Origin: Minisyncoccota bacterium
Lineage (GTDB): Bacteria; Patescibacteriota; Minisyncoccia; Phycocordibacterales; JAQTLZ01
DNA length: 64,000 nucleotides
NCBI GenBank assembly: GCA_028714635.1
Contig: JAQTLZ010000003.1
Span: 21,237-85,236, forward strand
Direction: 5' to 3'
Shown here: in pieces, positions 21,780-39,895 of the stretch
Layout of the letters: each line of letters opens with the position of its first letter
Numbering within the stretch: position 1 is the stretch's first letter
The notes under the pieces: generated by a model
The model's input: only the letters and a program-made list of their open reading frames with translations
Told to the model about the DNA's origin: nothing
Database searches by the model: none
Made by a program: the position numbers and the translations under genes

Positions 21780-21784
21780 TGCTC

Positions 21785-21940: not shown

Positions 21941-21970
21941 TCGTTTACACCTAGCGTGGGGACAACATTT

Positions 21971-21999
21971 TTGAGACCGAAGAGTATTGGCAGTATAAT
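21971..21999 (+). promoter_or_regulatory. Sigma70-like promoter TTGAGA-17 nt-TATAAT, 7 nt upstream of ATG 22007 (leaderless MFS mRNA)
   Basis: -35 at 21971..21976 and a perfect -10 at 21994..21999. Confidence 0.55.
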
Positions 22000-22006
22000 A
22001 AAGCGC

Positions 22007-23179: not shown

Positions 23180-23183
23180 AAAT

Positions 23184-24140: not shown

Positions 24141-24193
24141 GACATTTTATTGGACATATTATATTCCAATATAATACAAAGAGAAAGGGAAAC

Positions 24194-24883
24194 TTATGAG
24201 TGTATTCGAGTGCCTTTAAACGGTTCTCCTTTCAAATATGCGTCGAGATTGATGAGATTATTGCCGTTCATAACCACAACTTCCAAGCCAAAATTTTCAG
24301 CTTCTTTTGCGGCGATAGGGTCAAACGGAGAGCTCATTCCCGGCTCCCACTTTTCCGGAATAATCTTTCGAAATTCCGCCCAAGAAATATCTTCGATTAT
24401 TTTTGCGTTGGGATTTTTTCTCGGATCTTTATCGTACACATAGTTGATATTCGAAAGATTAACAAGCTTATTTGCTCCGATATTTTTAGCGATAAGGACC
24501 GCATCTTCATCGGTACTGCAACCAGGTTCGTATCCCGCTCCTATAAGCACCGCTTCTTTGAAATCAACGGGAGTGCTTGGGTTATCTACAACATGCGGAT
24601 GCGAAAGGGGTGCGAATATGGCACGCAAAAGTTCAGCATTCAGTTTGGTCGCTCCAATTCCAACCCAGTCCGCGTCAGAAGCGCTTACTTCCGGAGAAAT
24701 TGCTCGCGCTGCTTCTTGATAATTTCGAGCAGTTTTTCCTCCTCCAGCAATAACAGCAAAACGAGTGCCGTTTTGAGTATGTCGAACAATAAGTTCCTTG
24801 AATTTCTTTATAAAATCCACATCGATCTGATGCGGGACAAGAATCGAACCGCCGACAGAGATAATAATTGGGCTTTTATCCAT
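24194..24883 (-). CDS. pyrH: Amino-acid-kinase-fold UMP kinase (archaeal-type PyrH)
   Basis: IIISVGGSILVP...FAVIAGGGKTARNY, the GGG-x-x-RxY motif of uridylate kinases; about 229 aa. Confidence 0.55.
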   Translation of the reverse strand: MDKSPIIISVGGSILVPHQIDVDFIKKFKELIVRHTQNGTRFAVIAGGGKTARNYQEAARAISPEVSASDADWVGIGATKLNAELLRAIFAPLSHPHVVDNPSTPVDFKEAVLIGAGYEPGCSTDEDAVLIAKNIGANKLVNLSNINYVYDKDPRKNPNAKIIEDISWAEFRKIIPEKWEPGMSSPFDPIAAKEAENFGLEVVVMNGNNLINLDAYLKGEPFKGTRIHS

Positions 24884-24916
24884 GGCTCATATAGTAGCAA
24901 AAGAAAATCTTTGAAG

Positions 24917-25483
24917 CTAGTTTCTGCCTCTCAAAGCCTCTCCGTCTCGGATGACAATGATTTTCTCTCCTTCGAAACGGATTACCGCCGAAGGTCTCCC
25001 GTTCAGAACTCCCCCGTCTTCGTAAAAATCAGCTTTTTCGCCAAAATATTTTTTTGCTTCATCGATCGTCCTAGCCGGAAGAAAGTCCTGCGGATTCGCG
25101 CTTGGAGCAACCAGAGGACCCGTTTTTTTCAAAATTTTTAGTAAGTTTCCGTCTTGAGGTAACCGAAAAGCCAGTGACTTTCCTCCGCGATGAAGATACG
25201 CGAATTTTTCATCAGCCACACCGAAAATAATGCTTACTTTTCCAGGCCAGAATCCGAGAATTTGTTCTCGCAGCTTTTCTGAAAGAACCACGCCGAACTT
25301 TTCCACGTCATCAATCGAGGAAATAAGTATAATGCACGGCTTATCTTTGTCTCTTTGCCGCAATTCATAGATCCTCTCGACGGCTTTCGCAGATATGGCG
25401 GAGCCGACAAGCCCATAAAGAGTATCGGTCGGAATTATTCCAACGCCGTCATTTTTAAGAATAGAAATATAATCCTCCTTCAT
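24917..25483 (-). CDS. tsaC: L-threonylcarbamoyladenylate synthase (TsaC/YrdC/Sua5 family)
   Basis: GIIPTDTLYGLVGSA hallmark motif and a YrdC-fold length of 188 aa. Confidence 0.75.
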   Translation of the reverse strand: MKEDYISILKNDGVGIIPTDTLYGLVGSAISAKAVERIYELRQRDKDKPCIILISSIDDVEKFGVVLSEKLREQILGFWPGKVSIIFGVADEKFAYLHRGGKSLAFRLPQDGNLLKILKKTGPLVAPSANPQDFLPARTIDEAKKYFGEKADFYEDGGVLNGRPSAVIRFEGEKIIVIRDGEALRGRN

Positions 25484-26121
25484 ACGTCAAGATGAGCATG
25501 ATCATTCCAGACAAGAAGTTTCCAGCCTTTTGTTTTCAAATCCTTTTTTCCCGGATCATACTCGACAACCGTGATCCCAGTATTTTTTGTTGCGAAAAAA
25601 GCTCCGAATTTAGAGAAAGTGGGCAAAGTCAATTCTTCATCTAAAAGAGCGAGAGCCACGCACATCCGAAGAAGCCGGGCGTGTGTCACGACAAGAAGAT
25701 GCTCTGCTTTCGTATTTTTGAAGAGATCAATCGCTTTGCGGGCGCGGGATTTCAGATCAGAAAAACTTTCCTCATCCGAATAATGCCAGTCTTCATTCAA
25801 ATTTCCTTTGACTTGGCTCCAAATTTTTTGATAAGACTCGTCTTCGAGCGATTTTCCAATAAGTTCCGATGGGACTTTCCATTCAGTGATAAGGTCTGAA
25901 TATTCGATCTCTTTCCCAATCACTTTCGCTATGATTTCGGCCGTTTCTTTTGTGCGAACATAGGTGCTCGAAAAAATCCTATCAATCGGAATTTTCTTGA
26001 GACGTTTCCCCACAGATTGAGCTTGTTTCTTGCCAGTTTCTGTAAGAGGATCGTTGGGGCCTTGGCACAGCCGCGCTTTATCAGCAACATCCTCGCCATG
26101 GCGCACAAAATATATCTTCAT
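25480..26121 (-). CDS. Histidine phosphatase family protein (phosphoglycerate-mutase-like)
   Basis: MKIYFVRHGE... with the catalytic RHG motif, plus a downstream HARLLRM-like region. Confidence 0.7.
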   Translation of the reverse strand: MKIYFVRHGEDVADKARLCQGPNDPLTETGKKQAQSVGKRLKKIPIDRIFSSTYVRTKETAEIIAKVIGKEIEYSDLITEWKVPSELIGKSLEDESYQKIWSQVKGNLNEDWHYSDEESFSDLKSRARKAIDLFKNTKAEHLLVVTHARLLRMCVALALLDEELTLPTFSKFGAFFATKNTGITVVEYDPGKKDLKTKGWKLLVWNDHAHLDV

Positions 26122-26945
26122 TTCGAAATTGTAAGCTTTTGGCGAAGATACGCAAGTGATCCGATAAGACCCCCCGAATCGGCAAGCTCCGCTTTTTTTA
26201 TAGCCGGTACAGATGGAAAAGCTTTGAGGAGCTCTCCGACATGTTTCGCGACATTCTCCACCGATATGCCCACTTTCTTTACCACCATGCTCCCTCCGAT
26301 AACAACGACATCTGGTGACCAGAAGAGAAGTGCATTATGAACACCGACAGCCGCGATTTTTTCAACACCCTCCCACACTTTAGGATCTGTAATCTCGCCT
26401 GGATGCTTGCCATATTTTTCCTGTACGGCCACGCCGTCGATCAGCTCTCCAAGAGATTTATTATTCACGTAATCAATAATTTGATAGCCAGGTTCAAAAT
26501 TAAAATGAGCCTTGTCAATCTTTCCTTCAACAATCCGGCACCCCCCAACACCAGTCGATACGGTTATGTAGGTTACAATAGGAAATCCTCTCCCCGCCCC
26601 CTCCGTCGCTTCACCAAGACCAACCATAGCGGTATCATTTTCAATAAAAACAAAAGATTTTGTGATATCGGCGATAGTCTCATGGAGGGGCTTGCTAACC
26701 CAACCTTGGAGATGCTTGCAGACCATGAGTCGTTCATGCCTTTCATCGAAAGTTCCAGGCATGCCGCCAGCCACAGCTAAGATTTTTTCTCCCTGAGAGA
26801 TTTTTTCTACCGCACCGCGAAACAAATCTCCCATTTTAGAAAAATCCTGCGGAGTATCTACGACAACAGGTTCGAGAAGTGTTTTGCCGTCCTTCGAACC
26901 AGCAATGCGCATTTTTGTTCCCCCAATATCAAATACAATATACAT
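26118..26945 (-). CDS. ROK-family sugar kinase (glucokinase-like; no HTH domain)
   Basis: MYIVFDIGGTKMRIA..., ASKHA fold, 275 aa, no N-terminal DNA-binding domain. Confidence 0.6.
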   Translation of the reverse strand: MYIVFDIGGTKMRIAGSKDGKTLLEPVVVDTPQDFSKMGDLFRGAVEKISQGEKILAVAGGMPGTFDERHERLMVCKHLQGWVSKPLHETIADITKSFVFIENDTAMVGLGEATEGAGRGFPIVTYITVSTGVGGCRIVEGKIDKAHFNFEPGYQIIDYVNNKSLGELIDGVAVQEKYGKHPGEITDPKVWEGVEKIAAVGVHNALLFWSPDVVVIGGSMVVKKVGISVENVAKHVGELLKAFPSVPAIKKAELADSGGLIGSLAYLRQKLTISK

Positions 26946-26947
26946 AT

Positions 26948-27913
26948 TTATGAGATGAGCTTTTTAAATTCTTCTACCATCGGGACCTGTTCCGCTTCTA
27001 CTCCATACAACATTGCCGTGTGATATGCGGTCCAATCGGCAAGTAAAAGCGAACTGAAAACTTTCTCGCTTCTCGTCGCACCGGAAAGCGGATATTCATA
27101 TACAACAATTCCGCGGTCTTCATACAGTTTTTTTGTGACCTTAAATCGCTTGCGGTTTTGCGGATGGTCAGCATCATCAGACAAAAAGAGAAAGACGAAT
27201 TTTTCAGAGAGCGATTTCGTCTTTCCCGCTCGATCAAATCCTGTCATCTCATTATGATTCAATTCCGGAAAAACGTTGCAAAATGAGGGTATTTTACCCG
27301 TTTCGTTGAGTTTTATTTTCCAGTTGTAAGCAACGGACATATTCTTGTCAGAGGCATAAATAACAGGCACTGACCCAGAAAGTTTTTTCGCTAACTCTTT
27401 CCCTTTTGTTTCGAGAGCCTTCGGATCAAGCTTTGTCGCGAGAGTATTGAGTTCTTTGAGCAATTTTTTATTCCCCAAAAGCGTGACGAGAGCAAGCAAA
27501 GAAAAACCAAGAGCGCTTCTTGGTTGAATTCCAGTGTCCGGCAAAACAATTCTCGGAATATCATTTTTCTCAGCAAATTGGATGAGCTTTCCCCCGACAG
27601 CTATGACCGCAAGATTCAAACCCTTGTCGAAGGCGGTCTTTGCGAAATCAATTGTTTCTTCTGTGTTTCCAGAATAGGAAGATGCAATATAGAGAGTCTC
27701 GCTTCTTTGAGCTTCAGTATAAAAAGGCAATCCATAATTTCTATGAATCGTTATGGGAATTTCAACATCGAGCGCAGATAAAAGATCCGCCGAAAGATGC
27801 GAACCTCCCATTCCCCCTACTACTACCTGTCCAAACACCTGTAATTTATCCTCATCCTCTATCTTTGGCTTCCAAGCAAACTGTTTTGCAAAATCTCGAA
27901 TTGCTTTGTCCAT
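26948..27913 (-). CDS. Bifunctional phosphoglucose/phosphomannose isomerase (SIS domain, archaeal type)
   Basis: VVVGGMGGSHLSADLL and SSYSGNTEET, with SIS-domain architecture and a length of about 320 aa. Confidence 0.6.
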   Translation of the reverse strand: MDKAIRDFAKQFAWKPKIEDEDKLQVFGQVVVGGMGGSHLSADLLSALDVEIPITIHRNYGLPFYTEAQRSETLYIASSYSGNTEETIDFAKTAFDKGLNLAVIAVGGKLIQFAEKNDIPRIVLPDTGIQPRSALGFSLLALVTLLGNKKLLKELNTLATKLDPKALETKGKELAKKLSGSVPVIYASDKNMSVAYNWKIKLNETGKIPSFCNVFPELNHNEMTGFDRAGKTKSLSEKFVFLFLSDDADHPQNRKRFKVTKKLYEDRGIVVYEYPLSGATRSEKVFSSLLLADWTAYHTAMLYGVEAEQVPMVEEFKKLIS

Positions 27914-27917
27914 GTTT

Positions 27918-28859
27918 TTAATGATTATTTTTTACCTGCCCCGTAGTCAGCTTCGCTGTACTACTGGGGTTTTCTATCGAATGCCCGCCGAATTGGTTTC
28001 GGAGCGCTGAAAGAATTTTACCAATATAGCTCGGTGTAGTTCCAGATTCAACTCGGAATTTGAATGAGTCTTCAATCACTTTCGCAGGAATTCCTAATTC
28101 TTTCCCTGCATTTACCGTCCACTCACCTTCTCCGGTATGAGAGACAGTGCCGGAAACTTCAGCCAAGTTTTTCCCGAATTTTCTATACGCATCTGAAAGC
28201 CAGCCGACAAGACGTGATTCGATGACAGAGTGATGATTATAGATTTCAGTCACCTTCAAAAGATCGAGATCAAATTCTGATTTTTCAAGAATTGCAAAAC
28301 CTTCCGCAAGCGATTGCATCATGCCGTATTCGATTCCGTTATGCACCATTTTTGTAAAATGCCCTGCTCCCGCTTTTCCTAAATATGCATAGGCTTCCGG
28401 TGCAGCAATATCTTTGAATAAATCTTCATGTTTTTTAAATACTTCTTCCTCCCCGCCGATCATAAGGCAAGCTCCTTCGCGGGCTCCTTTTGGCCCGCCT
28501 GATGTTCCAATATCAAGAAAATGAATCTCTTTCGAAGCGAGATCTTTCGCTCTTCGCATCGAATCTTTATAAAAAGAATTTCCGCCATCAATAATCGTAT
28601 CGCCCTTTTCGAGAAACCCGATAAATTCGGAAATGACAGAATCGACAACGTTATTCGGAACCATGACCCAAACAGTGCGAGGAGTAGGAAGTTCGGCAAG
28701 AAGCGCTTCATACGAGTCGGCTACGCGTAAACCAGCCTTTTTGCCCTCAAGACGAGGTTCTGGACTTCGATTATACGCAATAACGTCCTGTTTCTTCTCG
28801 TGCAGGCGTAAAACCATATTCATTCCCATTTTTCCAAGTCCGATATATCCGAGTTTCAT
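27918..28859 (-). CDS. gnd: Decarboxylating 6-phosphogluconate dehydrogenase, short (YqeC/Gnd-like) form
   Basis: MKLGYIGLGKMGMNMV Rossmann start, and HTGEGEWT in the C-terminal 6PGD domain. Confidence 0.65.
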   Translation of the reverse strand: MKLGYIGLGKMGMNMVLRLHEKKQDVIAYNRSPEPRLEGKKAGLRVADSYEALLAELPTPRTVWVMVPNNVVDSVISEFIGFLEKGDTIIDGGNSFYKDSMRRAKDLASKEIHFLDIGTSGGPKGAREGACLMIGGEEEVFKKHEDLFKDIAAPEAYAYLGKAGAGHFTKMVHNGIEYGMMQSLAEGFAILEKSEFDLDLLKVTEIYNHHSVIESRLVGWLSDAYRKFGKNLAEVSGTVSHTGEGEWTVNAGKELGIPAKVIEDSFKFRVESGTTPSYIGKILSALRNQFGGHSIENPSSTAKLTTGQVKNNH

Positions 28860-28866
28860 ATGTGTA

Positions 28867-29442
28867 TTATAGCAGTAATTTTCTTCTTGTAACTAACAGA
28901 AGAACAAAAAAGCCATTCGAGAAAAGAAGAGTGCCCAAATAAAGAGTCGTTGTGATTGAATAGTGTGAAAGAGCAAATATATCAAAAACAACCGCAAGCG
29001 CGCTCATAAAATAGGTTGAAATTGTTTCTGTGAAAGGTTCTTCATATCCTTTTCTATAAGTAGGCAAAAACCCAACAAAATCTATTATCGAGATCAAGAT
29101 TACTGAATGGAGAGCGTTCTTCTCGAACAACCAGATACCTATTGCAATGAGAGAACCGACCAGACATATTGTGTCAAATTTTGTTATATTTTTTGTTCCA
29201 TATTTCAAAGAAAGGAGAAACATGCAAGTACACAGAAATGCTCCTATACCGAGTCCTAATACTCCATAACCACCGCGATCACTCAAAATAGCTAGTACGC
29301 CGACAGATTGTAAGATACTCCATACAAGCCAGGAGTAAGAATGGGGATTGGTCTTTTTTAAAAACACATCCCGAAAATAAGGCGCAAAACAAGCAATAGA
29401 AAAGATACTTGCCACTATTCCAAATAAAAGTTTTATAGACAT
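28867..29442 (-). CDS. Hypothetical polytopic membrane protein (about 6 TM)
   Basis: Hydrophobicity pattern only. Tightly packed inside the minus-strand operon. Confidence 0.4.
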   Translation of the reverse strand: MSIKLLFGIVASIFSIACFAPYFRDVFLKKTNPHSYSWLVWSILQSVGVLAILSDRGGYGVLGLGIGAFLCTCMFLLSLKYGTKNITKFDTICLVGSLIAIGIWLFEKNALHSVILISIIDFVGFLPTYRKGYEEPFTETISTYFMSALAVVFDIFALSHYSITTTLYLGTLLFSNGFFVLLLVTRRKLLL

Positions 29443-29443
29443 A

Positions 29444-30433
29444 TCATTTAAAAATCACCTTCGCAGCATCCCAAAATTCAGGATGGCCGTTTTGCTTCAT
29501 GTAGTACCACCATTCTACTCCCCAGAGATATTGCTCGCCGAAGCTCGTAGTTTTTGCAAAAGTAATAATTGAATTAAATTTGGCGATGTCCATTCGTGAA
29601 AGCTGAAGGTCAATTGGGGCATCTTTTATCGGCGTTAAAAGCCACGGCTCGAGGGAAAGTTCGCTTAAAATATTTTTCTTCTTGCCAAAAACAAGGTCCG
29701 CAATATTTTGCCTTATCCGATAGTATGCCGGGGTAATTGGATATCTGAATTGCCCGAACGTCTGATTCCAGGCATAGAGGTATAAACTCGAGCCAAAGAC
29801 ATCACCATCTCGTTTGGCGCCCCACCACGTCCCGAGCTCTCCGCTATCCGTCAAAAGCACAGGATGAGCGGGATCAAGTTTTTTGACCAGTTCGATCTCT
29901 TTCTTCAAAAAAGATTCGTCAAACGGCTTGCACCATTCTTTGGCGTAGATAGTAAAGAAGGGTTCATTCTCAACCTGCCAATAGGTAATGTTGCCGTAAT
30001 TTTTATAACGATTAACGGTTTTTTCAATGTATTCCAAGAGTTTCCTCTCCCCCGTTTCTTTATCCAAAGACCATTCCCACTCTGGCGCATGACACTCCGG
30101 CCAGACAGGAAGCCTGCGACCAACCGAAAAAATAACAGACGCTCCTGCGCGTTTTGCTTCGCTCATTTGGAAATCCATATTTGAATAATCAAAAACACCG
30201 TCTTTCGGTTCGATATCCTGCCAATACGCAGACAACCGCAGATTTTTTACTTGCAGATCCTGGAGCATTGCCTCGTAGACCGCTTTCCAGTCTAAGCCGA
30301 GCTCAAGCGCATGAAGCGTGCTAAAAGAAACACCGTAGGTAATTTTTTCTGGCACAGCACGAAAAGAGAGAAATACGAAAATCAATACGAGAGCTAAAAT
30401 AATCCAAAAGAGATATTTTAATAAACGTCTCAT
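29444..30433 (-). CDS. Clan GH-A glycoside hydrolase (GH5-like) with a signal anchor
   Basis: WQVENEP contains the NEP catalytic acid/base motif, on a (beta/alpha)8-like protein of appropriate length with an N-terminal TM. Family assignment is tentative. Confidence 0.5.
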   Translation of the reverse strand: MRRLLKYLFWIILALVLIFVFLSFRAVPEKITYGVSFSTLHALELGLDWKAVYEAMLQDLQVKNLRLSAYWQDIEPKDGVFDYSNMDFQMSEAKRAGASVIFSVGRRLPVWPECHAPEWEWSLDKETGERKLLEYIEKTVNRYKNYGNITYWQVENEPFFTIYAKEWCKPFDESFLKKEIELVKKLDPAHPVLLTDSGELGTWWGAKRDGDVFGSSLYLYAWNQTFGQFRYPITPAYYRIRQNIADLVFGKKKNILSELSLEPWLLTPIKDAPIDLQLSRMDIAKFNSIITFAKTTSFGEQYLWGVEWWYYMKQNGHPEFWDAAKVIFK

Positions 30434-30568
30434 CCCGTAGTGAAAAATGGCATCGCTCCTCTGGAGCAGTTATGCTTCTTTTCTAATTAAAGCTGATAGG
30501 TTCGACTTTTGCATATATATCTATATGATTTCAACTTCTCCAATGCCATTTTCTACTACGGGACTCAT
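30429..30568. repeat. MITE-like element copy 1: 26-bp terminal inverted repeats (CCCGTAGTGAAAAATGGCATCGCTCC ... GGAG-ATGCCATTTTCTACTACGGGA) around an AT-rich ~90-bp core, flanked by the direct repeat CTCAT
   Basis: IR-L at 30434..30459 and IR-R at 30538..30563. CTCAT sits at 30429..30433 and 30564..30568. The left CAT is the start codon of the GH5-like gene. Confidence 0.6.
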
Positions 30569-30571
30569 AGC

Positions 30572-31465
30572 CTAGTGGATAAAAAGGAGCATAAAACCGG
30601 CAACAATAAAAGACACCGATATGACTTTATGAAATATTTCGTATGAATACTTCGGACTGTATACGAATTCCGAAAATCTCTTCCCAAATAAAAATCCAAA
30701 AAGAAGCAGAAAGACATATTGAAGCCCCACAAGAGCGTTCACGAGAGATGCACTCGAGAGCTTGATAGTGTAGAGAATAAGAACAGCAGCCACTCCAGCA
30801 AGCACTTTGCCGAGCACCACCATGGCTTTCGTTCCGGAACTCGACTGCCTGAATCCTTCTTTTATAAGCCGGAGATTGTTCGGCCAGAAGAAAAGAGTGA
30901 GTGCTCCGAAAACATTGCCAATACGCGACCAGAAAAACCCATTGATGAAAGTGGTATCGGCAAGCACTATTTTTACAAACACAGACGAAAGCCCGAGAGC
31001 GAGGCCGGAAGCGAAAATATAAAAAAAGATCTTCGGCTTGAAACTAAAATGCGAAGTGAGAAGCGTCCCGAGGATGAGGAAGAAGGAAGAAAGAAGAAAT
31101 GAGCTCGGCAAACTTTCTTTCAGAATGAAAAAAGAAAAAATAAAAGTCGAGATCGCTATCGCCGCGCCGACTACGGGCACCACATCCGCAGGATCTTTGA
31201 CGCGCCGAAGAGCCTTGTACAGATACACGATCGCCTGGATATAGGTGACGCCGGAAAGAAGAGCGAGAATAGTAATTTTCGTGCTTGGAAAAAAGATCTT
31301 TCCAGTGGGGATAAGAACAAGCACGATGGACGAGAGTGCGCCGACAAAAAAAGCGTAGACAACTGAATGAGGAAATTTCTTCGTCACCAAATACTTATCG
31401 AAGAGGACGACGAGAGCGTTCAAGAGCTCCGCACAAACGACTAAAAGAATCCAGAGATAAGCCAT
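30572..31465 (-). CDS. EamA/DMT-family transporter (10 TM)
   Basis: Two repeated 5-TM halves with EamA-like Gly-rich segments. Confidence 0.65.
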   Translation of the reverse strand: MAYLWILLVVCAELLNALVVLFDKYLVTKKFPHSVVYAFFVGALSSIVLVLIPTGKIFFPSTKITILALLSGVTYIQAIVYLYKALRRVKDPADVVPVVGAAIAISTFIFSFFILKESLPSSFLLSSFFLILGTLLTSHFSFKPKIFFYIFASGLALGLSSVFVKIVLADTTFINGFFWSRIGNVFGALTLFFWPNNLRLIKEGFRQSSSGTKAMVVLGKVLAGVAAVLILYTIKLSSASLVNALVGLQYVFLLLFGFLFGKRFSEFVYSPKYSYEIFHKVISVSFIVAGFMLLFIH

Positions 31466-31469
31466 AGGT

Positions 31470-32642
31470 TTAGGAAATACTATTCATCTCGCATATTTTC
31501 TTATACAACAGGGCTGAGGGGCGAATCGTCCTCTCCATTGTATCATAATTTATTTTCACCAAGCCGAAACGTTTCGTAAATCCTTCCGCCCATTCGTAGT
31601 TGTCGAGAAGCGACCAGTAGAAAAATCCCCGGACATCTGCCCCGCCCTGTATCGCTTGGTGCACCGCAACTAGGTGATCTTTGATGAATTTCCCCCTCTG
31701 ACTGTCATTCGCGTCTGCAATGCCGTTTTCTGTTATATAGAGCGGTTTTTTATATTCTTTGAGCTCTAAAAGCACATTTCGAAGTCCATCTGGATAAATA
31801 GTCCAGCCCATGTCAGTTCGGGGCAGATTTTCAAGCTTTCCAAATGCAATGTGTCGATAGTAATTGACGCCGATGAAATCCTGGCACTCCCGAATACCCT
31901 TCAGAAATTTATGATTCCAGAATTTTCGGGAGAAATTTGCCCGCACATCATTCCACCATCCTCCGCCAGAGCCGAAATCCATATTCTGTTTTGCAATCCC
32001 GATCTGGATCGAAGGATTTTTCTTTTTCATTTCGATGTATGCAAACCGGTGAGATTTCATTAAAATTTTAAGCGCTTTCCAATATTTTAGAATGTCTCTT
32101 TTGAATGGTGGCCAGCCTCCGCGAAGATATCCGTTCCCAAGCCAGACCATGGGCTCGTTCATGGTCATCCAAAATTTCGCTTCGCTTCCGAGTTTCTCTG
32201 CAACATACGCACAGTATCGCCCGAAAATCTCAGGCGCTTTTTTATTTTCAAATCCACCCTTGTCCCGAAACCAAATCGGCAGAGTAAAATGCCAGAGCGT
32301 CACAAACGGCTCTAGCCCCCGAGCTTTCAGTACATGAAGCACCTTTCGATAATGCTCGATTTCTCTATCATCAAATTTTCCTTCTTCGGGTTCAATACGA
32401 GCCCACTCTATAGAGAATCTATGCGTGTTTTGGGAGAGTGATTTCGCAATATCAAAATCTTTTTCGTACAAATTATAGTGGTCACAAGCCTTGCCAGTGA
32501 TAGGAACCTTTTTCTTTCGTCCAGCTTCGGCCCAATCAACATTTTCAATTCCTCCTTCTACCTGATAAGAAGCCGTCGCACTTCCCCACAAAAACCCTTT
32601 CGGGAATTCGAGTGCATTTCGAGCAGAAACATTTTTTTTCAT
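31470..32642 (-). CDS. Beta-glucosidase, glycoside hydrolase family 1
   Basis: FPKGFLWGSATASYQVEGG N-terminal signature, TMNEP acid/base and YITENGIA nucleophile motifs. Confidence 0.9.
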   Translation of the reverse strand: MKKNVSARNALEFPKGFLWGSATASYQVEGGIENVDWAEAGRKKKVPITGKACDHYNLYEKDFDIAKSLSQNTHRFSIEWARIEPEEGKFDDREIEHYRKVLHVLKARGLEPFVTLWHFTLPIWFRDKGGFENKKAPEIFGRYCAYVAEKLGSEAKFWMTMNEPMVWLGNGYLRGGWPPFKRDILKYWKALKILMKSHRFAYIEMKKKNPSIQIGIAKQNMDFGSGGGWWNDVRANFSRKFWNHKFLKGIRECQDFIGVNYYRHIAFGKLENLPRTDMGWTIYPDGLRNVLLELKEYKKPLYITENGIADANDSQRGKFIKDHLVAVHQAIQGGADVRGFFYWSLLDNYEWAEGFTKRFGLVKINYDTMERTIRPSALLYKKICEMNSIS

Positions 32643-32794
32643 CCCGTAGTGAAAAATGGCATTATTTGCTCGCCATTTCTATAGTTAAGCGAATAATTGA
32701 TAAGTATGTATTGTAAATCATTTTAATGTATCTCTATCTAAAATCACAAATCTCGCAAATGGGGAGCGATGCCATTTTCTACTACAGGATTCAT
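32638..32794. repeat. MITE-like element copy 2: the same terminal inverted repeats as copy 1, flanked by the direct repeat TTCAT
   Basis: IR-L at 32643..32662 (CCCGTAGTGAAAAATGGCAT) and IR-R at 32763..32789 (GGAGCGATGCCATTTTCTACTACAGGA). TTCAT sits at 32638..32642 and 32790..32794. The left CAT is the start codon of the GH1 gene. Confidence 0.6.
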
Positions 32795-32890
32795 AGAAAG
32801 ATTATAACAGAAATCTGTTTAGACACAGGGAAGAAAAACCTTGACCAAAGCCATAATTTTCATTATTATGTGCGCCTAGTTCTTTAGCAT

Positions 32891-32940
32891 TTTCGTCATA
32901 GCAGAAAGGCGCTTTAGGGCTCTTTTCTGCTATGACGAAA
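32891..32940. promoter_or_regulatory. Perfect 17-bp palindrome (TTTCGTCATAGCAGAAA-16 nt-TTTCTGCTATGACGAAA) 51 nt upstream of the xylose-isomerase-like gene
   Basis: Arms at 32891..32907 and 32924..32940. Candidate operator or 5'UTR hairpin. Confidence 0.5.
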
Positions 32941-32990
32941 CCATTGTGGATTTTGTCAGAGGCAAGGGAAAGGTAGAGGAGGAACGAAGT

Positions 32991-34298
32991 ATGACGCAGG
33001 AAAGAATAGTCAGACCGCAAAGAGTCTCACACTTTGCGTGCCAGTCGGTCTTTTTGACCCTAGGCAAGCAGGGAGGATTCAAGACGCTCGACGATTTCCT
33101 GAAGTTCGCGAAGAACGACTGCGGATTCGAAGCCGTCAGCATCCCGACCTGCCCGCCGCTCATCGACATGGCTCAAGCGAGCAAAAGCAAGAGCTACTGC
33201 GCCGATCTGCTCGGCAAGTACGAGAAACACGGCCTTCCGCTTCTGCGCCTCGAAGGCCATACGTCCACACAGTGCGTATGTCTCGATCCGTCACGAAAGC
33301 TGAAGTTCGGCCACTTCATGAGCCCGAAGTTCCGGAAGTTGAAGCATCGCCAAATCGAAAAGCTGGCCGTCAAGGAAGTCAAGAAAGCGATCGATGTGAC
33401 GGCGGCACTGGGTCTCAAACATCTCGTCGCGTTCTGCGGTGGGCGTTCGTTCGCCGTGGCACAAGCGAAATGGGCGGCGTGGCCGAAGTATTTCGCGGCC
33501 TGGTCGCTCGCGCTTCTGGCGTACAAATGGAACGACATCCTGGAATACGCGGCGGAGCGCGGCGTGATCCTCATGTTCGAGATCGGACATCCGGAAAACG
33601 ATCTCCTGACTGCACAAAACTGCATCGACTTCCGCAAGATGCTTACTCCGAAGGCCCGCAAAGCGTTCGGCGTGAACGCGGATCGGTCGCATTTCCGGAA
33701 CGTCGGGACAGATGAGTTGAATCACTTCCGACGCATATTGAAAGATGGGATCCCGATCACCAATCATTACAAGGACGGGATCTACGTCGATCGCGGAGAT
33801 GGAACGGCTTCGCCCTATGGCGGACTCGAGCCGTGGAGCAATTCCGCGGGGACGTTTGCCACAATCGGTATCGTCGGTGACGAGACGGCCCTGCAGGAGT
33901 ACAACGGGCTGATGGCAGAAGCCCACGCAACACAAGAAGGTGGAGTGGACATACACCACGAAGCCGAATGTGTGTTCATCCCTAACCCGAAACAGGGGAT
34001 GATCGTCGGGGCGCACAACTGCCGCGCACTCCGCGATGAAACACCGCTCATCCGGTTCAATAACGTAGCACCGGATACTGATCTCACTCCGTTCTCTACT
34101 ATGGGACGACGCGAACTCGTAGGCGCAGACGGAGCGCCGATGGTTTTGAAGCGGTGGGGCGGTGGGCCATTCGACAAGTTCGCTGATATCCCGGTTTCCG
34201 CACCGGAGCTTCTGTCGCTCTTGGCCGATGAACGGGATGGCTGTGTGGCAATCCTGGAACGAGCAGGATACACAGAGGCTGCCGCAATCAGAAACTAA
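32991..34298 (+). CDS. Xylose-isomerase-like TIM-barrel sugar isomerase (possibly a divergent xylose isomerase), GC-rich foreign gene
   Basis: 435 aa, with VAFCGGRSF (compare WGGREG) and ILMFEIGHPEN (compare FLIEPKP) motifs. GC is ~65% against ~42% in the flanks, and it has a strong SD GGAGGAGGAA 7 nt before ATG 32991 that is unique in the window. The track ORF begins earlier at 32946. Confidence 0.5.
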   Translation: MTQERIVRPQRVSHFACQSVFLTLGKQGGFKTLDDFLKFAKNDCGFEAVSIPTCPPLIDMAQASKSKSYCADLLGKYEKHGLPLLRLEGHTSTQCVCLDPSRKLKFGHFMSPKFRKLKHRQIEKLAVKEVKKAIDVTAALGLKHLVAFCGGRSFAVAQAKWAAWPKYFAAWSLALLAYKWNDILEYAAERGVILMFEIGHPENDLLTAQNCIDFRKMLTPKARKAFGVNADRSHFRNVGTDELNHFRRILKDGIPITNHYKDGIYVDRGDGTASPYGGLEPWSNSAGTFATIGIVGDETALQEYNGLMAEAHATQEGGVDIHHEAECVFIPNPKQGMIVGAHNCRALRDETPLIRFNNVAPDTDLTPFSTMGRRELVGADGAPMVLKRWGGGPFDKFADIPVSAPELLSLLADERDGCVAILERAGYTEAAAIRN

Positions 34299-34327
34299 AT
34301 CACGCTTGTTGCAAATATCGCAACAAG

Positions 34328-34365
34328 GACCACTGGGAAACACTCCCGGTGGTCTTTTATTTTTA
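34328..34365 (+). terminator. Intrinsic terminator after the isomerase gene, with an adjacent second hairpin at 34306..34328
   Basis: GACCACTGGG-AAACACT-CCCGGTGGTC 10-bp stem followed by TTTTATTTTTAT. Confidence 0.7.
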
Positions 34366-34371
34366 TCCCAA

Positions 34372-35664
34372 CTAATACTCAAGAGCCTGCTCCATCTTTT
34401 TTTCCGCAAGAATCTGTGGGATTCCATACGCAAGACGGTTCAAGGTAATAATTTTATCTTTTATACGTGAAGCATATTTTTCCGATTCAGGAGGAAGGCC
34501 GATGCCAGAGAAAGCAGTGCTCGTCTTTCCATCAATCATAAGTTTTATATAAAAATGAAAGCGAGGAAGCCCCAGAAAATCATCGACGGTCATCGGCTCA
34601 AATTCTTTCTCCAAAATCTCCGCGTCCTCAGCGCCAACTTCAAATGCAAGCATTGTGCCGATATTTCCAAGCACAGCTTTTTTTATCGTCTCCGGAAGTT
34701 GCGCTAAATACTGATTGGTAATGTGAATTCCCAAAGCATATTTTCGAGATTCACTCAGGAGGCTCGTGAATGTCTCAGTCGTGAAATTTTGAAACTCATC
34801 GACGTAAAGATAGAACGGCACGCGCCTATTTGCAGATTCATTTGCACGTCTTTGTATCGCGCCCTGAAGACGCGAAATGAGAATGAGACCGAGCATATGT
34901 GCATTTATATCCCCGATTTTTCCTTTTGAGAGATTCACCAAGAGAATTTTATTGCTGTTCATCAAGGCGTCAAAATTGAAACTGCTGGTGCGCTGACCAA
35001 TGATATTTCGCATCAGTTTATTGTTCATAAAATGCCCGAATTTCGAGAGGAAATAGTTGAGCATTTCACTCTTGTGAAAATCCGAAGTCTTCGCCATTTG
35101 TTTCGTCCAGAAATCAATAACCGTTCCGTCTTTCAATTCTTTCCGCTTCTTCATCTCAAATTCTTTATCCACGAAAAGCTTTGGAATTTCAAGAAGACTT
35201 CCCCCTTCCGGCCCCGCCATTACAGTCAAAGCAGCGTTTCGAAGCCAATGCTCGAATTGAGGCCCGATGATTCCAGTCTTTTCCGGGTCAAATAATTTAT
35301 AAAATATTTGGATGCATTCCCCCACCAAAAAATCTTTTTCTTGATCATCCCGTGCTTCCAAGAGATTTAATCCAAAAGGAAATTCCGTATCACTCGGATC
35401 AAAAAGGATAACATCTTCAAGCCTCTCTTTCGGAATATGTGAAAGAAGCCAATCAACGGATTCTCCGTGGGGATCAATAAAACAAACCCCATGACCCTCT
35501 TTTATATCTTGGAGACACATATTTTGGAAAACGGTTGACTTTCCAACTCCAGTCTTCCCGATCATATACATATGTCGAAGACGATCTTTCTCATTCATCC
35601 CGATGAGAGTGCGTCTGCCGTGATATTCATTTGCTCCGATGGTGATAAATGACATATTATTCAA
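34372..35664 (-). CDS. VirD4/TraG/TraD-like (DUF87/HerA-type) P-loop NTPase with no TM domain
   Basis: Walker A MYMIGKTGVGKST, Walker B-like FYLYVDEFQNF and a C-terminal TraD/TrwB-like segment. It is the last gene of a four-gene minus-strand operon. Confidence 0.5.
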   Translation of the reverse strand: MNNMSFITIGANEYHGRRTLIGMNEKDRLRHMYMIGKTGVGKSTVFQNMCLQDIKEGHGVCFIDPHGESVDWLLSHIPKERLEDVILFDPSDTEFPFGLNLLEARDDQEKDFLVGECIQIFYKLFDPEKTGIIGPQFEHWLRNAALTVMAGPEGGSLLEIPKLFVDKEFEMKKRKELKDGTVIDFWTKQMAKTSDFHKSEMLNYFLSKFGHFMNNKLMRNIIGQRTSSFNFDALMNSNKILLVNLSKGKIGDINAHMLGLILISRLQGAIQRRANESANRRVPFYLYVDEFQNFTTETFTSLLSESRKYALGIHITNQYLAQLPETIKKAVLGNIGTMLAFEVGAEDAEILEKEFEPMTVDDFLGLPRFHFYIKLMIDGKTSTAFSGIGLPPESEKYASRIKDKIITLNRLAYGIPQILAEKKMEQALEY

Positions 35665-35974
35665 AAAAAGTTAGGTCGAGCGTTTTTTCTGTAAAATAAT
35701 TCTCGTCCAATACTCGTTTTCGATTTTTCTTTGCTTCTTGAAGCTCTTTTTCTTTTTGGATGATAAGAGCAAATTCTTTTGCTTCCCGGCTTATCTTCTC
35801 GATAAGCGATTTCTGAAGAGGAATGGAAATATACTCGGAAAGCGAAGAAAGCATTTCTGTTTGCCGTGTATGCATTTTTTCAAATGAAGGAAATGCGAGG
35901 AGTTTCTCATCGATTTTTGCCTCCACCGAGCTCATCCCCAATTCCACTGAATGTAATTTTTCGTTTTTTCTCAT
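35657..35974 (-). CDS. Small (106 aa) coiled-coil hypothetical protein
   Basis: Start chosen at ATG 35974, 1 nt after the Clp-like stop, with an 8-nt overlap onto the downstream ATPase gene. K/E-rich heptad character. Confidence 0.35.
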   Translation of the reverse strand: MRKNEKLHSVELGMSSVEAKIDEKLLAFPSFEKMHTRQTEMLSSLSEYISIPLQKSLIEKISREAKEFALIIQKEKELQEAKKNRKRVLDENYFTEKTLDLTFFE

Positions 35975-35975
35975 A

Positions 35976-37640
35976 TTACTTTTTATTAAGCAAGGAACGA
36001 GCAAGAAGCGATTCACATGTCTCCTCAATAAATCGCTTCACAGGACGTGCGCCGAATCGTGGATCAACCATAGTCTTAATTCTCGCCTCAAGAAGCGCAG
36101 GATCAATATCGAACTGCACTCTATGTTTGGAGAGTCGTGCTTCAATTTTCTTGATTTCAAGCTGTGCAACTTCGACAAGGCCTTTGAGAGAAAGCGGATT
36201 GAAAATAAGAATACTGTCGAAACGATTCAAAAATTCAAGGCGGAAAGTCTTCGCAAGCGCTGGAATAATCTTTTCTTTGAGAAAGGCTTCGCTTCCCACA
36301 TCATTTCCCTTTTCAAATTCTTTGAGAATCTCATCCACAGCAATATTCGAAGTCGCCATAATGATAGAGTGGCGAGCATCGACGGTTTCATTCTGGCCAG
36401 ATGTGAGCCGCCCATCATCAAGAACTTGAAGAAAAATATCGAATACTTTCGGGTGTGCCTTCTCAATTTCATCGAGGAGAATGAGACTGTGAGGTTCTTC
36501 CCGAAGCGCGTTGGTAAGTGCTCCTCCACTTTCATACCCGATGTACCCCGCTGGAGCGCCGATAAGCCTCTGCACAGTGTGATCCTGCCCGAATTCCGAC
36601 ATATCAAAACGGATAAATGTTTCGCTTCGGCCGAACATATTTTCTGCGATAAGTTTTGCTGTTTCGGTTTTCCCCACCCCAGAAGGGCCGAGCATAAGAA
36701 ACGAGCCCAATGGTTTATTCGGATTTCGAATTCCCAATTTCGCTCTCTGGAGCGTCGCCGCAATCTTCTTTATTGCTCCTTTTTGGTTGATTATTCTTTC
36801 GCTCAAAACAGACTCAAGATTTTTGAGCACATGAAGCTCATCGGGCTTCAATTGCGCTTTAGGAATTCCAGTTTTGCCCGCAACGACAGAAGCAATAATG
36901 TCATCCGAAAGCTCTTTCTTCCCAAGCGACACAGCATAGGCAAGACTTTCATCAAGAAGACTGACTGCTCCCCGAGGCAATTGCCCCAGTTTGGGAAATC
37001 GTTCCACAAAGCCCACAATTTCTTTGAGCACCGTATCCGAAACCAAAACATGTTCCCCATTCAGATTTGGTAGTGCTCTTTCAAGGATTTGCGCGTACTC
37101 AAGCGAAGTTTGATTCTTCACTTGTATCGTTTCAAAAGATTTAACAAATGCAGGATGTTCCCGCTCGAGCCATGCATATTCATTAGGTTCAAGGGCCAAA
37201 ACGATTCGCACGTGCGACTTTTTCAGAAGTATCTGATAGAGGCGAAAAATATTTTTAAGGAGTGAACTGTTGCCAAGTACCGCTCTTCCAAAATTATCTA
37301 TAAAAACTACAGATGGAGGCAAGGTCGTCAGTGCTTGCTCAAAATATTTTGCATAGGCTTCATTTTCAAGCTCATACAAATGCTCCGCATCAAGTTGGAT
37401 AAATTGGAGCGAATCAAACTCTTTCTTCCCTGCCATCTTTTTTATCCAGCCATAAACAAGGGTAGTTTTCCCGATGCCATTTGAGCCAACAACGAGGACA
37501 TTGTTGCTTATCTTTCGAGTCACGACACGTGTAAGCCGTTCCATTTCCTCGGTACGGCCAATAACGTTCGGCAATTTGCCCGAGCGAACTTCTTTTCGAA
37601 GATCAAAATATTCAATTTTTTTAAAATGAAAATCAGTCAT
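35976..37640 (-). CDS. Compact two-ring Clp/Hsp100-family AAA+ ATPase (D1+D2) with no N-domain, M-domain or ClpP-docking loop
   Basis: D1 has IGRTEEMERLTRVV...VVGSNGIGKTTLV with a degenerate Walker B, VVFIDNFG. D2 has LMLGPSGVGKTETAK, LILLDEIEKAH and GARPVKRFIEE. It is 554 aa against ~750-870 for ClpA/B/C, and has no IGF/IGL tripeptide. Confidence 0.8.
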   Translation of the reverse strand: MTDFHFKKIEYFDLRKEVRSGKLPNVIGRTEEMERLTRVVTRKISNNVLVVGSNGIGKTTLVYGWIKKMAGKKEFDSLQFIQLDAEHLYELENEAYAKYFEQALTTLPPSVVFIDNFGRAVLGNSSLLKNIFRLYQILLKKSHVRIVLALEPNEYAWLEREHPAFVKSFETIQVKNQTSLEYAQILERALPNLNGEHVLVSDTVLKEIVGFVERFPKLGQLPRGAVSLLDESLAYAVSLGKKELSDDIIASVVAGKTGIPKAQLKPDELHVLKNLESVLSERIINQKGAIKKIAATLQRAKLGIRNPNKPLGSFLMLGPSGVGKTETAKLIAENMFGRSETFIRFDMSEFGQDHTVQRLIGAPAGYIGYESGGALTNALREEPHSLILLDEIEKAHPKVFDIFLQVLDDGRLTSGQNETVDARHSIIMATSNIAVDEILKEFEKGNDVGSEAFLKEKIIPALAKTFRLEFLNRFDSILIFNPLSLKGLVEVAQLEIKKIEARLSKHRVQFDIDPALLEARIKTMVDPRFGARPVKRFIEETCESLLARSLLNKK

Positions 37641-37651
37641 GGAAATCTAAA

Positions 37652-39535
37652 TTACGCGGCTCGTCTCATTGTGATACCGCTCGACGGATCACTTTCGGTA
37701 TAGGTTCGTTCCGCTTCCAATTCGTCAATATTTGATTGCGGCTGTCTTCCGTTCACTCCGCTTAGAACTCCCGCTTTTTCTCGAGATTCACCAAAACGAG
37801 CATCCCTCTCCTGCCCTGAAAAGATATCGATTGTATTCGCACCCGTCTCGGAAATGTTTTCTTGCGCCTGGTCTCCTTTCCTTTCATTCTCAACCACGAT
37901 TCTCTTCGCTTCCGGACGAGAAAACTGAACATACGGAGAAGGAATAAGGACTTCATCAGAAATTTTATCCTCTTTTTTGTCTTCTTCTATTTTCTTCTCA
38001 ATAATGCCCGGCTTGTCTGCATTTTTTTCCGCCACTTCTCTTTTCTCAGGTGTTTCCTCCGGTTCTTTTCTTTCTTGTTTCTCTATTTTTATCGGCTTTT
38101 TCTTTTCTGCAATGACAACCTGTTTTTCCTTCTCCTTTGGCAGATCTTTTTTCTCCGCTTCTGGTACTATCGGAGGTTTATCTGGGGTTGTTATTTTTTC
38201 AAGAATAAACTCTTCTTCCCAAACTTCTTTGAGAGGAACAATTTGCTGTTCAATTTTATCCTCAGCAAAAGTATCTCCACCTCCTTCCGGATCTTCTGGC
38301 TCTGGCTCGGGAATGCTCACCAACTCAATTCCGGACGGCTGTTCTTCCTCGAAAATTCCTGCCTTTAAAGTCTCCTTAGCTTCCGTGCTATCCGTACCAG
38401 CTCTTTTACTCAAATCGCTTGGAATAAGGATATCTTCTCCTTCTTCTTTGAAAACGACTGGCTCCCGTTTCTCGTCTGCTTGGAAAACTTCTGGCGCTAA
38501 CAGCTCTTCAATAATTTCTTCTTTCTTTTCGGAATGTACTTCTACCACTTCGGATTCTTCCTCTGACTCCCGCTCCAAACGCTCTTGGCTATTCACGCGA
38601 GCGATTGCTTCGAAGTTTTCAGTTTTTTCTGCAAAAATCTCTGCTTTTCCTTGCACTTTCTCTTCCGGTGCTTGCCTCTCTGGCGCTTCTCTAGGCGAGA
38701 TATTTATAATCGTATTCAAATGAGAAGTTTCAAATAACGGAGCGATAGAGATTGAGTCCACCGCATCCACTTGCGTGTTTTCTCCATTCGTCCCATTCAC
38801 AAGAGATGCGTCGGAAAAAATTCCTGAAGCATTTTCCATCCCCATTTGCTCTCGCAATTCGGCATTTACATCAATTACGAGCGGCCCGCTATCGTTATCA
38901 CTATCTCCATCAAAAGATGTGCTTACTATTTCTGAATCATCATATCCATCATCAGTCTCTTCTCGTATTACAAGTTCTTTTTCAGGATGTAAATAATAGG
39001 AATATTTAATCTCATTATTCTGTCCTTCAAGCCTGACAAATGTAATATGAGTGCCTTTTTCATCAACAAATTTGAAAGTGTAGGAACCTTTTTCGGCCAA
39101 GCCCTTTCTCATCTCCTCATCCGCCTTTCGAAAATTTTCATTCTCATTAACAGAGCCTTTCCCTGTTTTATCAGTCAAACACTCATCCGTTGCTAAATCA
39201 TAAATTTTCCCATCTGCTTCGTTAAAATACGTACTGTCGCCGGATATGTTCACCTCATCATCCACCCCCCATTCCTTACTTTTCCCTCCGTGTTCTTTCG
39301 CGATGACTGCCCGAATATCCCCATCTCTCCACTCTCCTCTCTCGGCTTTTCGCGCCTCCCTTTTCGCTTCTAAATTTTCTTGTTTAAGCCTTTCTTCATT
39401 CGCAACATCTTCGGGAGACTTGGTATCCTCTCGAGAATCTGCAGGAACTCTCTCGACAGGAGGAATATCCTCAAGTACGGGAGCTTGAGGTTTATCTATG
39501 AAATCTTCTGGTATTTCTTGCAGTGTTTCTGGCAT
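37652..39535 (-). CDS. Highly acidic (D/E-rich), largely low-complexity hypothetical protein
   Basis: About 627 aa with long E/K/D-rich stretches and no TM or signal peptide. The track ORF uses TTG 39553; ATG 39535 (MPETLQEIP) is more plausible because 39553 abuts the terminator U-run. Confidence 0.45.
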   Translation of the reverse strand: MPETLQEIPEDFIDKPQAPVLEDIPPVERVPADSREDTKSPEDVANEERLKQENLEAKREARKAERGEWRDGDIRAVIAKEHGGKSKEWGVDDEVNISGDSTYFNEADGKIYDLATDECLTDKTGKGSVNENENFRKADEEMRKGLAEKGSYTFKFVDEKGTHITFVRLEGQNNEIKYSYYLHPEKELVIREETDDGYDDSEIVSTSFDGDSDNDSGPLVIDVNAELREQMGMENASGIFSDASLVNGTNGENTQVDAVDSISIAPLFETSHLNTIINISPREAPERQAPEEKVQGKAEIFAEKTENFEAIARVNSQERLERESEEESEVVEVHSEKKEEIIEELLAPEVFQADEKREPVVFKEEGEDILIPSDLSKRAGTDSTEAKETLKAGIFEEEQPSGIELVSIPEPEPEDPEGGGDTFAEDKIEQQIVPLKEVWEEEFILEKITTPDKPPIVPEAEKKDLPKEKEKQVVIAEKKKPIKIEKQERKEPEETPEKREVAEKNADKPGIIEKKIEEDKKEDKISDEVLIPSPYVQFSRPEAKRIVVENERKGDQAQENISETGANTIDIFSGQERDARFGESREKAGVLSGVNGRQPQSNIDELEAERTYTESDPSSGITMRRAA

Positions 39536-39551
39536 GAAAATAAATAAAGAC

Positions 39552-39577
39552 AAAAAATCCTTCTCGATGAAAGAAGG
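39552..39577 (-). terminator. Intrinsic terminator immediately upstream of the acidic-protein gene
   Basis: Minus strand reads CCUUCU-UUCAUCG-AGAAGG followed by AUUUUUUG. It lies 17 nt before ATG 39535. Confidence 0.6.
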
Positions 39578-39745
39578 TGGCGAAGAGGCGCAAGCGCGTA
39601 CTCTTTAATCTCACATCCTTTACTCGAGGACTGACGAAACATACTTTCGTGCGCGGTATTCGGACTTCCCTCTTTCGAGAGTTACCGTAGCGGTACTGTG
39701 CCGGAATTACACCGGACTTCCCCAACGCAACGAAATAATTTTTCA
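39552..39745 (-). ncRNA. Candidate structured leader / riboswitch-like attenuator or small RNA of unknown class
   Basis: A ~190-nt minus-strand segment with moderate GC and several local hairpins (CCGG-UGUAAUU-CCGG, CUCU-CGAA-AGAG, ACGAAA-GUAUG-UUUCGU). It carries two copies of GGGAAGUCCG and ends in a terminator just before a gene start. No convincing protein-coding potential. Confidence 0.35.
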
Positions 39746-39895
39746 AAAACAACAATCAAAACCGGAAACGTATAAGGATATTATATGTCACAGAGAAACA
39801 CGTGCAAGAGTGGATTACTACGCACAGCACACATTAAAATAAAAGCTAGGGAAAAATTTTTAAAGCTCATAAAATAAGGAGATTCCTGGAATTAG

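Follow-up and report, generated by a model that had tools for sequence, protein, structure and literature searches.

Introduction

Oxidative breakdown of glycosides through 3-keto intermediates has so far been described in Agrobacterium and other C-glycoside-degrading bacteria. Within this route the 2-hydroxy-3-keto-glucal hydratase of A. tumefaciens, AtHYD (PDB 8RO4), hydrates the glycal freed by beta-elimination of 3-keto-glucosides, and a Gfo oxidoreductase then reduces 3-keto-glucose (PMC10628242). AtHYD has a xylose isomerase-like TIM-barrel fold, as do D-xylose isomerase (XylA) and the Streptomyces coelicolor protein SCO6571 (PDB 2ZDS), whose function is not known. Here we describe a gene from this superfamily in a 64,000-nucleotide (nt) stretch of DNA from a Minisyncoccota bacterium (GenBank assembly GCA_028714635.1, contig JAQTLZ010000003.1, positions 21,237 to 85,236 of the forward strand). 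This stretch is hereafter called the window, and coordinates refer to it unless another locus is named. The gene, delimited by its open reading frame (ORF) and by alignment of its homologues, occupies 32991-34298 on the plus strand and encodes 435 amino acids (aa). It adds a new and divergent member to an enzyme superfamily that is already known, and its base composition differs sharply from that of its surroundings.

Atypical GC content is commonly taken as proof of recent foreign origin. The gene resembles the ameliorating acquired genes of Lawrence and Ochman in that its GC and codon usage are atypical, it is absent from a close relative, and it is accessory. It departs from their model in three respects: the composition of its family has not decayed under vertical inheritance, no donor of matching composition is known, and the atypical composition spans precisely one transcript, whose signals look native. 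We favour, with a probability of roughly one in two, the reading that this is an AtHYD-like accessory gene of a family from candidate phyla radiation (CPR) bacteria, whose GC excess is confined to the transcript and kept by selection at the mRNA level. No earlier description of a transcript-limited, long-maintained GC excess in CPR genomes was found in the literature searched.

A GC-rich gene in a small family of CPR bacteria

The coding sequence (CDS) has a GC content of 57.1%, against 43.6% in the remaining window, and the 1.3 kb that hold the gene form the most GC-rich stretch of that size in the 64 kb. A preliminary description of the locus, made from the letters alone, had put the gene at about 65%, which is too high. 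GC at the first, second and third codon positions (GC1, GC2 and GC3) is 0.60, 0.43 and 0.69, compared to averages of 0.50, 0.37 and 0.40 in 47 host ORFs. The GC3 of 0.686 lies 6 standard deviations above the host value of 0.40 +/- 0.05, and codon usage is likewise atypical. The abrupt rise and fall at the gene borders noticed in the preliminary description are also observed: GC climbs from the 5' untranslated region (UTR) through the initial 50 nt of the CDS, and it drops past the terminator.

The family to which the gene belongs appears, from database searches, to be very small and so far named from CPR bacteria only. When 5.8 billion clustered proteins were searched by word index, 18 matches at 40-51% identity were returned. 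Among 1.84 billion representatives, searched exhaustively with HMMER, 17 matches fell below 1e-30, with about 8 full-length clusters above 400 bits; the next matches, at no more than 212 bits, are from a different subfamily. In all, the family amounts to about ten clusters at 50% identity in that set. Four loci were matched among 185,579 species-representative genomes (two Saccharibacteria and two Staskawiczbacteria), and metagenome contigs yielded five loci, three of them previously unseen. No homologue was present in the viral contigs searched, and plasmid records contained just 25-31% identical relatives, mostly from high-GC Alphaproteobacteria. By exact look-up, the full-length protein is absent from the 5.8-billion-cluster collection (15 billion sequences). 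The neighbouring GH1 protein is present in the protein collection at 100% identity (NCBI proteins, Pacebacteria metagenome-assembled genomes), and the best named matches of the RNase J encoded at 19271-21199 are from Candidatus Pacebacteria/Paceibacterota and other Parcubacteria, so that the window can be assigned to a CPR (Patescibacteria) genome of a Paceibacteria lineage. The genomic contexts of the family loci all differ. A terminator of its own accompanies every copy, and for most copies there is also a separate promoter-like TTGAC box.

The homologue is richer in GC than its flanks in all 13 non-redundant loci, with gene and flank values of, for example, 0.61 vs 0.52, 0.53 vs 0.33, 0.58 vs 0.33, 0.58 vs 0.40 and 0.55 vs 0.39. 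Averaged over the loci, GC is 0.32 at 100-200 nt upstream, 0.43 in the last 100 nt before the ATG, 0.52-0.58 inside the CDS and 0.52 in the terminator hairpin, and it is 0.32 again in the 50 nt that follow. A robust z-score of GC3 marks the gene as a clear outlier in the window itself and at loci L002, L005, L010, L012, L013 and L015. High GC is a property of the gene family, and it is confined to the transcribed unit.

Other genes with raised GC3 were observed near family members. The next gene after the L002 member is a GFO_IDH_MocA oxidoreductase gene (11527-12738, plus strand) with 53.6% GC and a GC3 of 0.57 vs about 0.2, in a genome of 32% GC, and so equals the family member in GC richness. 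An AT-rich promoter region of its own precedes it, and the spacer separating it from the family member is AT-rich as well. L005 contains a second GC3 outlier just downstream of a PIF1 helicase gene (12986-13552, minus strand; 0.58 vs a median of 0.25), a 173-188-aa ORF without a Pfam domain.

These distributions bear on the explanation advanced in the preliminary description, namely a recent transfer out of a high-GC lineage, such as Actinobacteria or Proteobacteria, whose unameliorated composition the gene would still display. The GC3 and codon usage would fit such an origin, as would a Shine-Dalgarno (SD) sequence on a gene of an SD-less genome, the absence of the gene from the corresponding slot of a relative (L023, see below), and the 25-31% identical relatives in high-GC Alphaproteobacteria. 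The GC3 excess also differs among members, as it would in an amelioration series. However, neither the 5.8 billion clustered proteins nor the 1.84 billion representatives hold a homologue above 51% identity, so that the near relatives expected in high-GC Actinobacteria or Proteobacteria were not recovered. Every taxonomically named member is from the CPR, which means that homologues from the same lineage do exist at the level of that radiation, and no family member lies in a genome of matching GC. Promoter, spacer and post-terminator DNA are AT-rich up to the transcript ends. Taken with the persistence of GC3 described in the next section, a high-GC donor is an unlikely source of the composition.

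GC-biased gene conversion would instead require a recombination hotspot at the gene, with frequent exchange between CPR cells and a biased heteroduplex repair that raises GC. The patchy distribution of the family and its differing contexts, which imply repeated transfer, the replacement of the slot in the window lineage, and the rise of GC3 in both C- and G-ending codons are all in line with this mechanism. Conversion tracts should nevertheless cross transcript ends, yet GC falls to 0.32 within 50-100 nt on both sides, and the L002 spacer remains AT-rich between two GC-rich genes. Silent divergence in the syntenic trio described below equals that of the neighbours, without a sign of recent allele exchange. 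We consider biased conversion improbable.

Ordinary translational selection, in which a very highly expressed gene would accumulate C-ending 'optimal' codons, was weighed on the codon choices themselves. C is the most enriched third base (0.26-0.51), and TTC (share 0.87), ATC (0.86), TAC and AAC are strongly preferred, as this explanation predicts. But G-ending codons are enriched as well (AAG 0.69, CCG 0.86, CTG 0.32), with T-ending codons depleted. Furthermore, the IF3 and L20 genes of L002, which are expected to be highly expressed, have a GC3 of 0.14-0.21, and the ATP synthase genes of L005 are not among the listed GC3 outliers. Selection for translation of this ordinary kind is thus a poor candidate, about as improbable as conversion.

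Persistence of the GC excess under vertical inheritance

The gene order GDSL lipase - acyltransferase_3 - gene - PIF1 helicase is common to L005 and L010, both Staskawiczbacteria, and L018. In these three loci the GC3 of the gene is 0.68-0.73 and that of the neighbour genes is about 0.2-0.4. Between L005 and L010 the gene has diverged by 0.18 substitutions per nonsynonymous site (dN) and 0.97 per synonymous site (dS), with neighbour dS values of 1.1-1.6. At 4-fold degenerate sites where the amino acid is conserved, third-base identity is 0.56 vs a random expectation of 0.36 in the gene, and 0.47 vs 0.26 in PIF1. Divergence of the gene has thus kept pace with that of its neighbours. Its GC at 4-fold sites (GC4) is 0.74 and 0.75 in L005 and L010 and 0.71 in L018, while neighbour GC4 tracked the genomes, at 0.20-0.28 in one of the L005/L010 pair and 0.38-0.55 in the other.

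Changes from G or C (strong, S) to A or T (weak, W) and the reverse were counted by parsimony, which is biased in skewed compositions, with L018 as the outgroup. On the L005 branch, S->W changes affected 6 of about 105 S sites in the gene and 14 of about 46 in PIF1, 5-fold rarer per site in the former (p = 1e-4). A two-state neutral model calibrated on the neighbours gives a GC3 for L005 of at most 0.49 even from a starting value of 1.0, and the observed value is 0.73. The excess has thus outlasted approximately one synonymous substitution per site in the trio, which the neutral model cannot reproduce and a donor composition in decay would not explain. We conclude that silent sites of the gene are actively kept GC-rich while the host genomes drift towards AT, and that high GC is a lasting family trait and no simple transfer scar.

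Two further sources of silent-site constraint were considered and rejected. An overlapping or antisense gene is contradicted by the L005/L010 comparison, where alternative-frame and antisense ORFs have dN/dS above 1 and the annotated frame has 0.18. A sequence-specific constraint such as an embedded RNA is not indicated either, the 4-fold excess identity being 0.32 vs 0.29 in PIF1, with no Rfam match.

mRNA structure as a possible cause

Compared with synonymous-codon shuffles of themselves, all 13 family mRNAs fold better (z -0.45 to -4.6, mean -2.15). The mean z is -0.39 for 15 genes of the window and -0.82 for 15 genes from two GC-richer contigs; the family differs from the former at p = 3e-4 and from the latter at p = 0.019. 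The z-score of the L002 Gfo gene is -2.35. Folding of the window gene yields -38 kcal/mol per 120 nt vs about -24 for host genes. Because of this excess local structure and of the stable 5' hairpin described below, selection for a folded, presumably long-lived message is suggested as the cause of the high GC. The selected trait would be an mRNA-level property, that of a strongly folded, long-lived or slowly translated message. More generally, a gene-specific compositional selection might act on the stability or structure of this mRNA or on codon-based control of its expression. Such selection would override genome drift for more than one substitution per silent site, and the trait would move with the gene between lineages.

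Several points weigh against this reading. Compared with local scatter, GC3 is only mildly raised in L001, L007, L008, L014 and L020, and these small-excess loci fit a series of copies at successive stages of amelioration equally well. The persistence of GC was seen in a single clade of three genomes. On the L010 branch of that clade, where the host gains GC, S->W changes number 17 in the gene and 1 in PIF1, and the gene's counts (S->W 17, W->S 7) hint at a slow loss of GC. The codon shuffles leave dinucleotides unpreserved, and the structure excess is modest relative to the GC-richer controls. The restriction to the CPR refers to the four of 13 loci that carry a taxonomic name, and to the window. 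Concerning function, the assignment of a substrate at 25% identity to AtHYD is weak, and searches of the 64-kb window found neither an oxidoreductase of the Gfo/IDH/MocA or GMC kind nor an OGE-type lyase.

The maintained, transcript-confined GC excess can also be stated more broadly: a CPR-restricted enzyme family and at least one partner oxidoreductase gene would be kept GC-rich over the whole transcript by silent-site selection, despite AT mutation pressure. We hold this broader form tentatively, at somewhat less than even odds. If silent GC of a single transcript is indeed maintained in AT-drifting, streamlined genomes, detectors of horizontal gene transfer that rely on composition would misdate such genes. 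CPR bacteria, whose genes in this window are SD-less and in many cases apparently leaderless, may then tune expression via mRNA composition.

Protein fold and predicted activity

The protein matches PF01261 (xylose isomerase-like TIM barrel, AP_endonuc_2) over residues 43-251 with 48.5 bits, for a cut-off of 31.1; no NCBIfam model matched at E <= 1. Against PDB chain sequences, the best phmmer match is AtHYD (8RO4; E 2e-23, residues 24-293). The motifs E197-x-x-H200-P, D231-x-S-H234 and H259-x-K261-D, which correspond to the E..HP..D, D.SH and H.KD motifs of AtHYD, align to identical residues of that enzyme. The alignment of 19 family members has 48 invariant columns, including E88, H90, E197, H200, D231, H234, H259, K261, E324 and E326. 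An AlphaFold2 (AF2) model built from the family alignment (predicted local distance difference test, pLDDT, 89; predicted template modelling score, pTM, 0.90) comprises alternating strands and helices consistent with a (beta/alpha)8 barrel, and about 100 aa at the C-terminus form a mostly helical, family-specific region.

We compared this model with the PDB using Foldseek. The best 50 of 252 matches at E <= 1e-3 all have the xylose isomerase-like barrel fold. By E-value AtHYD ranks first, with a template modelling score (TM) of 0.82 normalised to AtHYD and 25% identity. SCO6571 is second, with a TM of 0.85-0.87 normalised to our protein; its sequence similarity is weak (E 1e-3, 19% identity). 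Sequence and model thus place the protein among the xylose-isomerase-fold TIM barrels, in a subgroup with AtHYD and SCO6571, as a predicted metal-dependent enzyme. With XylA it shares the superfamily fold (PF01261 clan), but sequence comparison with solved XylA chains gives E-values of 0.23 to 0.85 and the structural TM is about 0.5. On these scores an identity as xylose isomerase was rejected. The preliminary description was therefore right about the barrel and the superfamily, whereas 'sugar isomerase' is here a superfamily label and no function.

The most likely function, as judged by homology, would be that of a hydratase or lyase with 3-keto-sugar or glycal intermediates as its substrates. 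Such intermediates would derive from oxidative, non-hydrolytic breakdown of glycosides. The gene is divergent from a GH1 glycosidase gene, and genes for an EamA transporter, a GH5-like protein, 6PGD, PGI and ROK lie nearby; the enzyme would complement the GH1 and GH5-like hydrolases and these other functions. Unlike AtHYD, with which it is just 25% identical, the protein is about 90 residues longer and has the family-specific C-terminal region, and its activity is predicted from homology. The loci differ as well. A glycoside 3-dehydrogenase, an OGE-type lyase and a Gfo reductase, as grouped around AtHYD, were not found together or singly near the gene in the 64-kb window. By contrast, the L002 member adjoins the GFO_IDH_MocA oxidoreductase gene, which resembles the Agrobacterium AtHYD locus and fits AtHYD-type chemistry. 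An AtHYD-like enzyme beside glycosidases suggests that some CPR bacteria possess some of the steps by which glycosides are degraded oxidatively, via 3-keto intermediates.

A variable slot and its assembly

The position of the gene was compared by blastn with one relative, L023 (GCA_028711065.1). Homology reaches as far as the start codon of GH1 (32642) and sets in again at the stop codon of a TraG/VirD4-like ATPase gene (34370); flank identity is 79% next to GH1 and 89.5% next to the ATPase gene. Between these points lies a lineage-specific slot (32643-34369). In L023 the slot measures 1203 bp, has 36.7% GC and holds a TrpR-like gene and a DUF3592 gene, neither of which matched the window by tblastn; a homologue of our gene is absent from it. 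The neighbouring ATPase is kept in L023. No flanking direct repeats, integrase, tRNA or other Rfam family at gathering score were detected at the slot borders. A gain, loss or replacement at the slot has thus occurred since the two lineages split. The comparison supports the view that the gene was gained, or lost by the relative, fairly recently, without polarising the direction. The most plausible source would be another CPR bacterium. The junction check therefore sustains one part of the acquisition beside GH1 that had been proposed, an accessory gene in a variable slot, and not the other, in which GC is a scar of transfer: the foreign-origin reading was roughly right on the change in gene content and wrong on the donor and on the cause of the GC.

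The strain has also been assembled independently as L022, which matches the window at 99.99% identity over 21470-33618 and ends 628 bp into the gene. The left junction is therefore independently confirmed. A chimeric assembly, in which a foreign GC-rich fragment would have been joined into a CPR contig, might be suspected from the break of L022 inside the gene. However, the near-identity of L022 extends through the junction, the ORF is unbroken and flanked on either side by host-like signals, and the pattern is seen again in 13 independent loci that come from different studies, three of them syntenic. An artefact is thus vanishingly unlikely, as two assemblies of the locus and the recurrence of the pattern exclude the chimera that the preliminary description had named as a concern.

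Positions 1-628 of L022 correspond to 32991-33618 of the window, so that this assembly breaks within the GC-rich gene itself. Such GC-rich genes may be under-recovered in metagenome-assembled CPR genomes.

Transcription and translation signals

The gene is a monocistronic accessory gene with a promoter, a 5' hairpin, an SD, a CDS and a terminator. A sigma-70-type promoter-like site (TTGACC-17 nt-TATTAT, 32841-32869, plus strand), identified from its consensus match alone (10/12), lies in AT-rich DNA about 20 nt upstream of a 5'-UTR hairpin. This hairpin (32891-32940, plus strand), found by folding, has 22-nt arms that are 91% complementary and a 6-nt loop. Folding of a 136-nt leader gives a z-score of -3.3, and that of 60 nt gives -32.6 kcal/mol. 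The hairpin is not a terminator, because no T run follows it, and it probably serves as a 5' stabiliser or regulator. An Rfam search over 32600-34450 returned no real match, just sub-threshold matches of miRNA models on the hairpin; there is therefore no known riboswitch or leader. Downstream of the CDS, two adjacent (tandem) hairpins followed by a T run form an intrinsic terminator (34305-34367, plus strand; -31.1 kcal/mol, z -7.1). Hairpin, promoter and strong terminator all agree with what the preliminary description had reported.

In the ORF listing the frame begins at a GTG (32946). ATG 32991 is the better start because 18 homologues begin at the equivalent position and a GGAGG (32978-32982) ends 8 nt upstream. 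The SD-like sequence reads GAGGAGGAA (32976-32984, plus strand), and not GGAGGAGGAA as first written. It is the only well-placed SD in the window, though not quite the sole one of its kind: apart from two weaker cases, no SD was seen at the 5' ends of the other window ORFs. These two cases are a GGAGG about 12 nt before the ATG at 59007 and a GGAGG before an internal alternative start of ORF 54119-54724. A -10-like hexamer stands 3-10 nt before the start codon in 13 of 48 ORFs, a leaderless pattern, with six perfect TATAAT, in agreement with the SD-less and partly leaderless host genes of the preliminary description. The SD of the gene is not conserved in its homologues. A conserved SD or 5' leader travelling with the gene was therefore rejected: the SD is unshared, and leader hairpins recur but are alike in sequence between orthologues only.

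A different arrangement was observed upstream of the two glycosidase genes on the opposite strand. Short leader ORFs precede the GH1 gene (MNPVVENGIAPHLRDL and a stop codon, 32794 to 32744, minus strand, within region 32643-32796) and the GH5-like gene (MSPVVENGIGEVEII and a stop codon, 30568 to 30521, minus strand, within region 30434-30570). In both, leader codons 2-9 are complementary to 20 nt that abut the glycosidase start codon and partly cover it. The corresponding 20-nt motif, ATGCCATTTT..ACTACGGG, occurs 4 times vs 0.01 expected. It was discarded as an element of our gene, since it belongs to the opposite-strand GH1 and GH5 genes. The long-range stems at the GH1 and GH5-like leaders have z-scores of -5.5 and -5.8, and the GH1 leader ORF carries TGTTATAAT 6 nt before its own ATG. 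This arrangement, which is absent from L023, looks like ermC-style translational unmasking, here in an SD-less organism.

Other features of the window

The cluster at 34372-39553 (minus strand), which is conserved in L023, comprises the TraG/VirD4-like ATPase (430 aa), a 123-aa ORF, a ClpB-like AAA+ protein of just 554 aa and a 633-aa ORF without a Pfam domain (37652-39553). An adenosylcobalamin (AdoCbl, B12) riboswitch (39606-39747, minus strand; 60 bits vs an Rfam gathering score of 50) is localized directly upstream of the latter. At 2409-16979 (minus strand), a single 4856-aa ORF has 50% GC and a -10 box 9 nt before its ATG; its higher GC is due to amino-acid composition, because its GC3 of 0.44 is ordinary. 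Finally, the genes for SBP_bac_5 and RNase J are adjacent in the window (17444-21199), in its relative L021 and in the distant L002 (16401-20305), where the RNase J is just 40% identical to that of the window.

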